A stretch of 64,000 bases of DNA from NCBI RefSeq assembly GCF_988242995.1, contig NZ_OZ547043.1; one strand, written 5' to 3'. Under the pieces are notes generated by a model. It had not been told where the DNA came from. It saw only the letters and a program-made list of their open reading frames with translations, and did not search any database. The position numbers and the translations under genes were made by a program. Every line of letters begins with the position of its first letter. Position 1 is the first letter of the stretch. Positions 47,444-50,655 of the stretch are shown piece by piece.

Positions 47444-48217
47444 TCAGAATTTCCAGGTCAGATGGGCTGCAAATTGCAGACCGTTATAATCATCAGTTGG
47501 GGTGTCGTACCACACTTTACCTGCCGTCAGCCCGAGATTAAGTTGCTCAGTCAGCGGTTGAATACGTTGCAAACTGACGCTCTTCATGCTGCCGTAGCGT
47601 GTTTCTGGCGTCCAGTCATAGGTGTAAGCGCCTGTTCCGCGGCTTAGCCATAGTTGCGTATAACCAGTGCCGCGCGGGTCATTCAGACGCACGGAAATCA
47701 TATTGCTGTAACTACCACCTGCATCGCTGGAGTCATAATGGGTATAGCGGTAGCTGGAGATCACCGGGCCAGTATAGAGTGATACGCCGCCTTGCCAGGC
47801 ATCGACTTCGACATCATCGTAATATTTCGTGTAGCGATAACCGGTCGTGAAAAGCGTTTTTGGCAACAGTGCCAGGTTAATATCCTGACGAAAATCCTGG
47901 CGGGCAAAGACCGGCGTATTATCCGCAAAGGCAATACCCGTTCGGGTTGTCAGCCAGTTATTCCATTTATACCAGACCGCACCCTGACCGCGAGTGGCAT
48001 TGAAATGTTCAGTTTCATAATCACGACGCCCCTGGGAAAGATTAAAAAGCAGCGTTGCGTTTTCAACTTTCGCCACCAGTTCAGCATACGCTAAATTACG
48101 GTTGCCATGATCGCCAGAATAATCGGTAAAATCGTAGCCCGCGGTAATGGAAGTTAACCCGGCATAAGCGGGCAATGCGCTAAAAATTGCTGCCGCTAAT
48201 AACGTCCGTTTTATCAT
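47444..48217 (-). CDS. yaiO: outer-membrane beta-barrel protein
   Basis: 257 aa with signal peptide; ends in ...HLTWKF aromatic terminus. Confidence 0.9.
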   Translation of the reverse strand: MIKRTLLAAAIFSALPAYAGLTSITAGYDFTDYSGDHGNRNLAYAELVAKVENATLLFNLSQGRRDYETEHFNATRGQGAVWYKWNNWLTTRTGIAFADNTPVFARQDFRQDINLALLPKTLFTTGYRYTKYYDDVEVDAWQGGVSLYTGPVISSYRYTHYDSSDAGGSYSNMISVRLNDPRGTGYTQLWLSRGTGAYTYDWTPETRYGSMKSVSLQRIQPLTEQLNLGLTAGKVWYDTPTDDYNGLQFAAHLTWKF

Positions 48218-48218
48218 T

Positions 48219-48929
48219 TTAATCTCCTGTACGGATAAGTTCTTGTCGGAGTGAATAAGTTCCGGTAGGTAAATTACGTTCTACAATCACGCGCGGGCCA
48301 AGTTGCGTGTTCGGGGAAATAATTCGCCCAGGCAAAATAATAACTTGTACGCCAAGGCGTGAACGCTGCCCGATATAACAACCTAATTTATCGCATTCGG
48401 TAGCGATAATTCCCTCTGGAGTTCGAACAGACACGGGCTGTTGATCCAGACGATGATTACTGGTACGTACTTGTGCGCCCAAATATGCCTGGTTTGCAAC
48501 TACCGAGTCGGCGATAAAGCATTGCGGACCAATCGTTGCTTCCGCTTCAATAACCGCATTTTTAATTTCGGTGGCAAAACCAATTTTTACGCCATTGCTG
48601 ATTATTGTGCCAGGACGAATAAACGCATAATTACCTATCAGGCAGTTTGCGCCAATCACTACCGGACCCTGAATAACGGCACCGTGACAAATACGGGTAT
48701 TCGCGCCGATAACAACTTCACCTGCAGTTTCATCAATAATTACCTGGTCTGCAATCTGAATATTTTTCTCTTTAACATTAAGCTTCAGAAAGTTTTTCAG
48801 TTCCTGTGACAGAAGGTTGGGAATAAGCGGTTGACGCTTCCACCAGTGCGGAATAGCGGGTGGGTTTGTCGCGCTGAGGTTCGCGTCCAGTAAAAAAGGC
48901 AATAAGTCCATAAATAATCCAGATGGCAT
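48219..48929 (-). CDS. yaiX: hexapeptide-repeat acyl/acetyltransferase; intact here (interrupted by IS2 in K-12)
   Basis: 236-aa ORF with left-handed beta-helix repeats; start uncertain (ATG 48929 or 48911); overlaps the yaiP 3' end by about 150 nt. Confidence 0.65.
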   Translation of the reverse strand: MPSGLFMDLLPFLLDANLSATNPPAIPHWWKRQPLIPNLLSQELKNFLKLNVKEKNIQIADQVIIDETAGEVVIGANTRICHGAVIQGPVVIGANCLIGNYAFIRPGTIISNGVKIGFATEIKNAVIEAEATIGPQCFIADSVVANQAYLGAQVRTSNHRLDQQPVSVRTPEGIIATECDKLGCYIGQRSRLGVQVIILPGRIISPNTQLGPRVIVERNLPTGTYSLRQELIRTGD

Positions 48930-49974
48930 AAGCTAATAATACATACACAACGGAAAGCGGCGCTAAAGGCACCAACAACCAGCAACGATGAAACCAGGCG
49001 CTAAAAGCACCAATAACACAAACTACGCCGACCCAGATAAGCGGAAACATTGCCAACACCACACCATGCGGCCCGGTGGTGATGAATTCATTAAACCAGG
49101 TAGTGAGATAAATCCCAACGCCATAAAGCACAACCAACAGCATAGGAAATATACTGAAGATACCGAAGCGGCTAAATAAAAGCCTTTTATGCAGGCGCAT
49201 ACAGACCGCGTAGCCCACAATCCAACGCCGCCAGCGACGCCATTCCTCACGCGGGCTGTTGCATTCCTGTGGGTATACGATGCAGCGATTCGCCTGCCGA
49301 ATACGATAGCCGTTTGCCACCAATGTCCAGGTGAGATCAAGGTCTTCGACTTTAGTACGATCAGAGAAACCGAACTTACGCAATACATCAGTACGGAACA
49401 TCCCGCAGGCACCGCTGATAATAAACGGTGCGCCGCCCAGGAGCTGCTGTAGCGTGCGCTTCATAACAATCATCGGCAACTTTACGGTCGCGCGGATGTG
49501 CGGTAACAGACCCGCGCCTTTCAACGCAGTAGAGGGAATGCCGCCTACGGCATCAGCACCGCGCTCTATTTCTGCAAGCATATAGCCCATTCCGTCTTGA
49601 TCGGGCGGAACATAGGTGTCGGCATCACTTAAAAAAACCTGGTCGCAGGTGGCGTAATTGAGGCCATTCATCAGCGCACCACCTTTACCGGTATTTTTTT
49701 GCGTGACGGCAACAAAGCGGTCGCCCCATTTGCGTTTGACTTCCGCCATGACCGCTTCGGTATTGTCCGTGGAGCCGTCGTTTACGCAAATTACCCGGCA
49801 AAAATAAGGATTACGCAGCAGATTATCCAGTGACTGTGCCAGACACGGGCCTTCGTTATAAGCAGGTATAATGGCGTCAATACAGCCTTTCTTTTGACTG
49901 GGTTTACGTTTTAGCGTACTTAAAAACCATAGCAACATTGCTATGGACATACAGATAAATATCCAGGTTTTCAT
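48778..49974 (-). CDS. yaiP: family-2 glycosyltransferase with C-terminal membrane domain
   Basis: 398 aa; GT2 motifs (VNDGSTDNT, SDADT). Confidence 0.9.
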   Translation of the reverse strand: MKTWIFICMSIAMLLWFLSTLKRKPSQKKGCIDAIIPAYNEGPCLAQSLDNLLRNPYFCRVICVNDGSTDNTEAVMAEVKRKWGDRFVAVTQKNTGKGGALMNGLNYATCDQVFLSDADTYVPPDQDGMGYMLAEIERGADAVGGIPSTALKGAGLLPHIRATVKLPMIVMKRTLQQLLGGAPFIISGACGMFRTDVLRKFGFSDRTKVEDLDLTWTLVANGYRIRQANRCIVYPQECNSPREEWRRWRRWIVGYAVCMRLHKRLLFSRFGIFSIFPMLLVVLYGVGIYLTTWFNEFITTGPHGVVLAMFPLIWVGVVCVIGAFSAWFHRCWLLVPLAPLSVVYVLLAYAIWIIYGLIAFFTGREPQRDKPTRYSALVEASTAYSQPSVTGTEKLSEA

Positions 49975-49983
49975 GCAATTTGC

Positions 49984-50655
49984 TCAAAGAATCATTTTAT
50001 GAATTACAAAGCCTTCACCCAGATCGCTATTGACCTGTTGCCCGCGAAATTGTGCAACTGCACGCAGGCGATCATGACGCATATAATCGCGTCGTTCCTG
50101 GCTTTTATGTTTTTTTAATGCAGCAAGTTTGACTGTGAAATATTCTTCTTTAACGGATTCAAAAACCTGAGGCATAAATGAAAGCCAGGTGCTTGGGGTT
50201 TCGTAGCCGAGAATTTGTGGAATAGTTCGGCAGGCAACCATTGAAGCTTGATAAACAGCAAGATGATCCTGATGGCGGTCGGCATCATGCATGGTATATA
50301 CCCGCATGATTTCAACATCAGAAGGAATTTGATTTTTAATGATGTCTTCCAGGGCGGAAATCATATCATTGAGCTGCAAATGCGCGCGGGTGTCAGCAAA
50401 ATTAAGATGAATAGTTTGGTGGCACCCTAATATCTTTAGGGCGTTGCGCGATTCTTCATGGCGATCGATTATTCCATCTGTGCCAGAGTTGCCGGTAGTC
50501 ATCACCACGGCTGCGATATAAATTCCTTTTTGCGCAAGACGAGCAAGCGACGCGCCACAGCCCAATTCTATATCATCAGGATGTGCGCCAATAGCAAGGA
50601 TACCCTTTCTTTTATTTGCCGAAGAAAGGATGGCTGAATCTAAAACCTTATCCAC
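49984..50655 (-). CDS. yaiS: PIG-L/LmbE-family deacetylase
   Basis: 223-aa ORF with AIGAHPDDIELGCG motif; the K-12 annotation may use a shorter start. Confidence 0.8.
   Translation of the reverse strand: MDKVLDSAILSSANKRKGILAIGAHPDDIELGCGASLARLAQKGIYIAAVVMTTGNSGTDGIIDRHEESRNALKILGCHQTIHLNFADTRAHLQLNDMISALEDIIKNQIPSDVEIMRVYTMHDADRHQDHLAVYQASMVACRTIPQILGYETPSTWLSFMPQVFESVKEEYFTVKLAALKKHKSQERRDYMRHDRLRAVAQFRGQQVNSDLGEGFVIHKMIL

Follow-up and report, generated by a model that had tools for sequence, protein, structure and literature searches.

Comparative evidence for a long, maintained overlap between yaiP and yaiX in Escherichia coli, with translation of yaiX probably starting at an internal ATG

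The stretch of 64,000 nucleotides (nt) analyzed here, hereafter the window, belongs to contig NZ_OZ547043.1 of assembly GCF_988242995.1 and is Escherichia coli DNA, 99.8% identical to strain ETEC1738. Its minus strand carries, in this order, yaiS, yaiP, the open reading frame (ORF) 48219-48929 that corresponds to yaiX, yaiO, frmR, frmA and frmB. The yaiX frame opens after the TAG at 48935-48933, closes at the TAA at 48221-48219, comprises 236 codons from the ATG at 48929, and is the +1 frame of yaiP on the same strand. Met codons occur at only two positions of the entire ORF, 48929 and 48911, both inside the 3' end of yaiP and producing overlaps of 152 and 134 nt, respectively; ATG 48911 is followed by a TTG at 48902 and then by no ATG, GTG or TTG up to the GTG at 48659, already inside the beta-helix domain. 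An earlier note on this DNA had described the ORF as a continuous 236-codon hexapeptide-repeat acyltransferase with its only ATG starts in the end of yaiP, and its coordinates, its starts and its family assignment (Pfam Hexapep PF00132, 64.3 bits against a cut-off of 27, E = 5.5e-18) are confirmed. The gene is already known, the open point being its start. From the sequence anatomy, the conservation patterns and the predicted fold, we infer both the position of initiation and the biochemical role discussed below. On comparative grounds the long overlap is real and evolutionarily maintained, and the whole of the observations is probably best explained by a YaiX of 230 amino acids (aa), initiated independently at the internal ATG 48911, the two genes sharing 134 nt out of phase. 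The features of yaiX and of its junction with yaiP are:

48219..48911 (-): proposed yaiX coding sequence, with the second ATG as start, for a predicted 230-aa hexapeptide-repeat (left-handed beta-helix) acyltransferase
48912..48929 (-): six additional codons that would be read if ATG 48929 were the start, completing the 236-codon ORF
48778..49974 (-): yaiP, membrane family 2 glycosyltransferase (GT2), 398 aa; RefSeq gives the identical extent
48778..48911 (-): yaiP/yaiX overlap, 134 nt, with yaiX in the yaiP +1 frame
48880..48912 (-): strong silent-site constraint on eleven yaiP codons (Y-G-L-I-A-F-F-T-G-R-E); read in the yaiX frame, they give the ATG and M[DE]LLPFLL[DE]
48846..48879 (-): linker of the yaiX extension, approximately residues 12-22, where yaiP alone is constrained
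48856..48858 (-): yaiP Arg codon CGC, putative site of the lost ancestral ribosome-binding site
48840..48848 (-): CAC-TGG-TGG (H-W-W), the putative position of the ancestral start, where His is now encoded, and the conserved Trp-Trp (WW) after it
48781..48837 (-): 19-codon yaiP tail, attributed to loss of the ancestral stop, overprinting the original yaiX 5' coding region
48798..48800 (-): CTG taken as start by RefSeq, 193 aa; the second RefSeq choice is the CTG at 48812-48810, 197 aa

The predicted N-terminus of YaiX is MDLLPFLLDANLSATNPPAIPHWWK from ATG 48911 and MPSGLF... from ATG 48929.

The comparison of starts covered 30 loci, with 17 enteric-type loci, 12 representative enteric lineages, and 7 distant-clade loci for codon counts. 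Enteric loci from Salmonella, Enterobacter, Citrobacter, Superficieibacter, an Ignatzschineria metagenome-assembled genome and divergent E. coli copies were added, and distant DNA from Pseudomonas, Acinetobacter, Sphingomonas, other Proteobacteria and bacteria of the candidate phyla radiation (CPR) was obtained from a genome scan. An ATG located 22 codons before the WW pair (21 or 23 in the case of an indel), followed by an open frame, is present in all 17 enteric-type loci and corresponds to 48911 in the window, so that the comparison with yaiX orthologs proposed in the earlier note supports the long overlap. This ATG is built from the yaiP codons for [Y/H]-G, namely TAT or CAT followed by GGA. 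On the contrary, an ATG at the 48929 position is found only in Escherichia and one Citrobacter locus (L024), being absent from the other enteric lineages.

The 12 lineages are near-randomized at silent sites (pairwise same-codon identity 0.28-0.57). When yaiP was recoded with the codon usage of each locus, the per-lineage chance of finding the ATG together with an open frame ranged from 0.06 to 0.62, giving a joint chance, as the product of the per-lineage values, of ~5e-7 over the 12 representatives and of 1.8e-10 over the 17 loci. The distant-clade controls behave as by chance, with the frame closed in about half of them, T as third base of the Tyr/His codon in 3/7, and GGA as the Gly codon in 2/7.

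Silent-site variation in yaiP was then evaluated along the region. Over the 11 codons from the ATG, same-codon identity amounts to 0.79 versus 0.42 +/- 0.045 in amino-acid-matched columns (P < 5e-5), while the next 9 codons (P..TRY, 48853-48879) are ordinary (0.47 versus 0.42 expected, P = 0.09) and the 12 codons upstream of the peak are unremarkable. The two Gly codons of the constrained segment are GGA in 12/12 and 11/12 lineages versus a 21% background, and third-position differences in yaiP fall from 0.60 to 0.24 in this segment, with a value of 0.52 in the linker that resembles single-frame coding. A 9-codon scan of all yaiP produced a single strongest peak at the ATG codon, with an observed/expected ratio of 2.05-2.10 (median 0.98, 95th percentile 1.25). 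Within E. coli, the 56-nt segment 48880-48935 is identical in 4843/4854 records, versus 1946/4835, 808/4831 and 341/4638 records (7-40%) for three control segments of the same length. As regards other causes of the constraint, no sigma-70-like site indicative of an internal promoter was found in 48650-49100, the fold of 48840-48960 gave z = +0.55 and thus no sign of a stable RNA structure, and the third sense frame and the opposite strand carry stops in most lineages, leaving no other ORF that could account for it.

Distant relatives display a different junction. Their YaiX homologues, ~50% identical and ~206 aa long, begin with MWW or VWW, which aligns with H28-W29-W30 of E. coli (236-codon numbering), and across 35 homologues both Trp residues (W23 and W24 of the 230-aa form) reach a conservation of 90% or more. 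In the proteobacterial distant loci yaiP ends in ...TGREPxRDKPTRYxxVV[DEGA]*, and the ATG or GTG of yaiX lies one codon before WW, with an overlap of 14 nt. The Arg codon of the yaiP T-R-Y motif is the rare AGG in 6/7 distant loci (AGA in the seventh, from Acinetobacter), forming a GAGG ~9 nt before the yaiX start. This AGG spans GC contents from 33% to 67% (L010-L018), and the AGG/GAGG of distant yaiP can be regarded as another instance of constrained silent sites at this junction, older than the one at ATG 48911. In two CPR loci yaiS is directly followed by yaiX, without a yaiP overlap, and MWW or VWW is retained; therefore, WW belongs to YaiX itself. Deep conservation of the YaiX extension, suggested by tblastn matches to query residues 1-4 even in Pseudomonas and Sphingomonas, was considered and rejected, the matches merely reflecting the conserved yaiP motif TGREPxRDKPTRY in its +1 reading; those distant loci often have the upstream yaiX frame closed and initiate at MWW.

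Enteric loci depart from this arrangement in several aspects. The yaiP Arg codon that forms GAGG in distant loci is CGN in 12/12 enteric representatives, the ancestral yaiX ATG is gone in most enteric lineages (CAC in E. coli), and the yaiP stop, located at +9..+11 nt relative to WW in the ancestral arrangement, is found at +17, +29, +32, +53, +68 (E. coli), +77 or +83 nt. The resulting yaiP tail, of 19 codons in E. coli, shows an amino-acid identity of 0.24, the yaiX frame of those nucleotides reaching 0.47, and differences in this region distribute as 0.35/0.35/0.61 over the yaiX codon positions, peaking at third positions. The tail being poorly conserved and variation accumulating at yaiX third positions, it is the yaiX frame that appears to be selected downstream of WW. 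There, yaiX residues are kept while their silent sites vary, as in L42 (Leu in 12/12 lineages with 5 codons), P31 (CCN) and R26, and the whole of yaiX exhibits phase differences of 0.30/0.19/0.63 in the 12 lineages. Such selection implies that translation must start upstream of ~48836. The earlier note had named initiation downstream of 48778 as the result that would speak against its proposal; this is contradicted, since both purifying selection in the yaiX frame and the predicted fold extend upstream.

The AlphaFold2 model of the 230-aa YaiX shows a mean predicted local distance difference test (pLDDT) value of 86.8. Residues 1-20 are predicted to be disordered (~50), as is the linker 12-22 (~50-54), the folded cap begins in residues 21-30 (73), residues 31-50 reach 86-88 and include the helix 36-41, and from residue 51 on, values above 95 are observed over most of the beta-helix domain (residues 51-150), with short and regularly spaced strands. 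The best Foldseek matches of the model are the beta-helix domains of ST0452, GlmU and LpxD, the C-terminal domain of ST0452 being the closest solved fold (33% identity over ~187 columns; Foldseek E = 6.5e-11, phmmer E = 2.8e-21). Best NCBIfam matches are Arch_glmU-type models, with all scores well below the cut-offs; membership of the GlmU equivalogs TIGR03992, NF041173 and TIGR01173 is not reached (127.6 vs 292.1 and 117.5 vs 600 bits), and YaiX matches only the C-terminal profile positions 228-400 of GlmU-type models, without a nucleotidyltransferase domain. The product of yaiX is most likely a functional stand-alone left-handed beta-helix acyltransferase. YaiX has the left-handed beta-helix and the hexapeptide repeats in common with the amino-sugar-1-phosphate N-acetyltransferases ST0452 of Sulfolobus tokodaii and bacterial GlmU but, unlike them, stands alone without the nucleotidyltransferase half, possesses its own N-terminal WW-helix cap and, in enteric bacteria, carries an added 22-residue extension.

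The two sets of loci suggest the following course of events. The ancestral yaiX would have had its ATG right before Trp-Trp, a GAGG in the Thr-Arg codons of yaiP and a 14-nt overlap with the yaiP stop. In the enteric lineage, the ATG and the GAGG would have been lost and the yaiP stop shifted downstream, translation of yaiX now occurring most likely by independent internal initiation at ATG 48911, within an AU-rich and unstructured context. The 230-aa product would then start with the conserved peptide M[DE]LLPFLL[DE], continue through a linker free of constraint and the WW-helix cap inherited from the ancestor, and lead into the beta-helix domain. With 134 nt between the yaiX start and the yaiP stop that follows it, termination-reinitiation coupling is implausible. 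Thus, of the long coupled overlap or non-canonical start envisaged in the earlier note, the long overlap is retained, with ATG 48911 and not 48929 as the conserved codon, and the coupling is not.

Comparison with known overlaps helps to place this arrangement. The ancestral yaiP-yaiX junction, with its 14 nt and a GAGG ~9 nt upstream, resembles the short stop/start overlaps (ATGA or TAATG) that couple translation, from which E. coli differs in that the yaiX start is 134 nt upstream of the yaiP stop, where reinitiation cannot reach it. The coupled stop/start feature is lacking at the E. coli yaiP-yaiX junction (48911 vs 48778; GAGG replaced by CGC) and occurs only in the distant relatives. A TAATG does exist at the yaiP stop (48776-48780), but its ATG 48778, considered as a yaiX start, was rejected, as it lies in the third frame and opens an ORF of only 12 codons; since it resembles a coupling motif, it could mislead annotation. 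A long same-strand out-of-phase overlap is that of rpmH inside rnpA in Thermus thermophilus, cited in 10.1101/520783. Overprinting of the rpmH/rnpA type and yaiP/yaiX share the use of two frames of one DNA, a younger one upon an older one, with silent sites suppressed in the latter. Unlike rpmH/rnpA, only the 5' 134 nt of a pre-existing yaiX overlap its neighbor, the overlap appears to have grown both ways from a 14-nt junction (yaiX start upstream, yaiP stop downstream), and only ~33 nt appear constrained in both frames.

Several observations weigh against ATG 48911 as the start, or as the only one. Its ribosome-binding site consists only of GGA at -9..-7 (-3.1 kcal/mol), and a 2026 study (PMC13058169) likewise remarks that no Shine-Dalgarno sequence precedes the "236-aa variant", present in many strains. 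In favor of 48911, the ribosome-binding site of yaiP's own ATG is equally weak, and the surroundings of 48911 are the least structured (-3.9 kcal/mol) and most AU-rich (71% AU) among the candidate starts. A 2020 eLife article (PMC7043885) reports that E. coli selects start sites correctly even when they do not pair with ribosomal RNA. Against 48911, residues 12-22 of the extension are unconstrained as well as predicted to be disordered, and the constraint could act on the RNA rather than on the peptide, which would still point to a start at 48911. Some enteric lineages also have an ATG 2-4 codons before WW, so the -22 ATG may perhaps not be the sole start in every lineage, and in Escherichia ATG 48929 may serve as a second one. 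Finally, the RefSeq pipeline consistently picks other starts.

Considering the alternatives, use of the first ATG, 48929, as the main E. coli start, which would give 236 aa and a 152-nt overlap, appears unlikely: despite being the first ATG past the upstream in-frame stop, lying within the 56-nt segment invariant across E. coli and yielding the form used in PMC13058169, its restriction to Escherichia and L024 argues against it, as do the ordinary silent-site variation of the yaiP codons 48929-48912, a weaker ribosome-binding site (-1.7 kcal/mol) and the choice of the 230-aa form over it by the gene callers of 1737 ENA sequences. Rather unlikely too is a near-cognate start near the ancestral site, for instance the ATT at 48854, three codons before WW, for a ~211-aa product made at low level. 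This position is ATT, ATA, ATG or TTG in every enteric lineage, the corresponding yaiP Tyr codon is TAT in 11/11, and the product would retain the conserved WW; however, with a Tyr background of ~77% TAT the 11/11 is only weakly unusual, the context is GC-rich and structured (-17.5 kcal/mol) and lacks a ribosome-binding site (-0.5 kcal/mol), and both the constraint peak at 48912-48880 and the -22 ATG would be left unexplained. In E. coli, initiation at ATT and ATA reaches at most ~1% of that at ATG. The RefSeq model, with CTG 48800 (193 aa) or CTG 48812 (197 aa) as the sole start and an overlap of 23-35 nt, is very unlikely, in spite of being the call of the NCBI pipeline in the sampled genomes, of having AGGAA just upstream of CTG 48800, and of the homologous codon being GTG, TTG or ATG in several lineages. 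Upstream of it lie R26, P31 and L34, conserved with freely varying silent sites, and the family-wide W23/W24; CTG 48800 is residue 38, inside the confidently predicted helix 36-41, with residues 21-37 folding at pLDDT 73-88; and the AGGA ends 1-2 nt from the CTG, too close to it. Moreover, NCBI records give four starts for near-identical yaiX genes (CTG, CTG, ATT and the extent of the pseudogene), which points to a homology-driven artefact.

Two further readings dispense with a yaiX start in use. According to one, enteric yaiX would be decaying and essentially untranslated, its start lost and its open upstream frame a by-product of yaiP conservation. Loss of the ancestral ATG and ribosome-binding site and the lack of such a site noted in PMC13058169 are in line with it, as is the fact that the upstream frame owes its resemblance to distant loci to the yaiP motif TGREPxRDKPTRY. 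Nonetheless, the clear purifying selection on yaiX across 12 lineages near-random at silent sites, its intactness in most E. coli, the phenotype that repaired yaiX confers on K-12 according to PMC3531124, and an open frame and ATG conserved far beyond what yaiP constraint alone predicts make it highly improbable. The other reading, that yaiX has no start of its own and is translated as a YaiP-YaiX fusion after a +1 slip on the T6 run of yaiP (GCC TTT TTT ACT, ~48891-48896), is the most remote of all. The run is conserved at silent sites in 9/12 lineages, within the constrained segment, and yaiX, in the +1 frame, is open across it, but the constraint begins at the ATG, upstream of the T run (TAT/CAT 12/12, GGA 12/12), the run is not followed by a slow or stop codon, the best 120 homologues include no natural YaiP-YaiX fusion, and the relatives clearly have separate YaiP and YaiX proteins.

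Returning to initiation at ATG 48911, a tentative and rather doubtful extension of it concerns M[DE]LLPFLL[DE], the 9-10 residues at the N-terminus of enteric YaiX. Once the ancestral ribosome-binding site and ATG had gone, this peptide would have arisen de novo, and been kept by selection, by overprinting the conserved juxtamembrane motif YGxIAFFTG in the YaiP C-terminus, maybe as a motif for docking or membrane association that links the soluble acyltransferase to the YaiP synthase. If true, the overlap would be a dated, two-directional de novo coding sequence gaining function, not a tolerated accident. Regarding evolution, the locus would offer a clean and well-sampled case of start-codon migration, from a 14-nt junction to a 134-nt overlap, with the ancestral and derived states both extant. 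With respect to annotation, the evidence points to the 230-aa form, while the RefSeq CTG and ATT starts strip a conserved and folded part of YaiX; the correct N-terminus matters when cloning or expressing the protein or interpreting the yaiSPXO aggregation cassette. Understanding of the enzyme family or of overlapping genes is otherwise unchanged, yaiX being an ordinary gene with a moderately interesting migration of its start.

Existing records agree on the gene, not on its N-terminus. The 2-kb yaiX region was found in 4918/5426 complete E. coli genomes and the ORF has 526 homologues at E <= 1e-5; therefore, it is not a chance ORF. Annotated lengths in databases are 236, 230, 197, 193, 174 and 146 aa, that is, at least six N-termini: the 236-aa form comes from KEGG-type annotations, the 230-aa form from the 1737 ENA sequences, those of 197 and 193 aa from CTG 48812 and CTG 48800 in RefSeq (checked at the nucleotide level in sampled genomes), that of 174 aa from an ATT codon, and that of 146 aa from GTG 48659. 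In K-12-type chromosomes IS2 sits between two yaiX fragments, so that the contrast drawn by the earlier note, with yaiX split there and intact here, is confirmed but not new, the 236-aa form having been reported in PMC13058169. In that study it was expressed from a cloning vector, which makes the study silent on the native start. Repair of the K-12 yaiX pseudogene leads to vegetative clumping that requires YaiP, according to EcoGene 3.0 (PMC3531124), which cites a meeting abstract. The text of a retapamulin ribosome-profiling preprint (10.1101/520783) contains no mention of yaiP or yaiX, and a literature search on yaiP returned mostly unrelated word matches.

The remaining members of the cassette flank this pair:

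49984..50655 (-): yaiS, PIG-L family de-N-acetylase, first cassette gene
47444..48217 (-): yaiO, outer-membrane beta-barrel protein, last cassette gene

The order yaiS-yaiP-yaiX-yaiO holds across Proteobacteria, with Pseudomonas, Acinetobacter and Sphingomonas sharing it with E. coli. Pfam assigns YaiP to GT2 (E = 5e-28), YaiS to the PIG-L deacetylases and YaiO to the YaiO-family barrels; the best NCBIfam match of YaiP is PgaC/IcaA, below the cut-off (100.8 vs 422.3 bits), and YaiS resembles BshB1-type deacetylases. On the basis of the domain matches, the conserved gene order and the clumping report, the cassette would most likely act in making a surface polysaccharide that contains amino sugars and takes part in cell aggregation, or in remodelling its N-acyl groups. 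The modification of a surface glycan suggested in the earlier note is thus plausible, considering the gene order, the sub-threshold PgaC/IcaA match and the clumping reported in PMC3531124.

The PgaABCD/IcaADBC poly-N-acetylglucosamine systems likewise combine a membrane GT2 with a de-N-acetylase and an outer-membrane beta-barrel, and the clumping reported upon yaiX repair recalls their aggregation phenotype. Unlike in these, YaiS is of the cytoplasmic PIG-L/BshB-like type and not of the PgaB/IcaB CE4 type, YaiO is unrelated to PgaA, and a beta-helix acyltransferase, absent from Pga systems, is present. In the LpxC/LpxD pair, a de-N-acetylase is followed by a beta-helix N-acyltransferase. The pairing of deacetylase and acyltransferase genes is the same in yaiS/yaiX, and LpxD is among the structural matches of YaiX; there is no membership at the sequence level, the likeness being one of analogy only. 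By this analogy, the pairing suggests that the N-acyl group of an amino sugar could be removed and then replaced.

The cassette adjoins chaperone-usher fimbrial genes (PapD, Fimbrial, MrpH/PapG, PapB) in Salmonella, Enterobacter and an ENA contig (L020-L023, L028 and L030, the contig being L028), which fits a role in adhesion or aggregation. It is sometimes found in more than one copy per genome, at up to 7-8 places, and at 26-30 places on plasmids. E. coli Z135-1 (L003) holds a copy 95% identical in another context (ParB, PAPS reductase, a transposase fragment and a PfkB kinase), and Citrobacter braakii ATCC 51113 has two divergent copies (L005 and L008). The multiple copies, the plasmid sites and the differing contexts make the cassette seem mobile.

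Some minor features of the locus were also recorded. The yaiX-yaiO junction is tight, the yaiX TAA (48221-48219) being separated by 1 nt from the yaiO ATG, with an AGGAG within the 3' end of yaiX (-7.4 kcal/mol; window 48217-48232), which contrasts with the near lack of a ribosome-binding site at the yaiX start. In Enterobacter sp. PGRG2 (L025, 3641-3726), yaiX is annotated with 241 aa and a C-terminal extension that overlaps yaiO by 86 nt, making a second long overlap in the cassette. Antisense to yaiX lies a TTG-start ORF of 122 codons (48441-48809, +), most likely a chance ORF in AT-rich, repeat-encoding sequence. Finally, yaiS is here a continuous ORF of 223 codons with a GTG start (49984-50655 (-) in the window; 2446-3114 in L001), 100% identical in ETEC1738, where the RefSeq annotation covers the first 363 nt alone, labelled a partial pseudogene "missing C-terminus", and includes on the opposite strand a 39-aa hypothetical protein (YkiC in some other records) that spans the 3' end of yaiS and its junction with yaiP; the truncated yaiS together with the 39-aa protein looks like an annotation artefact.

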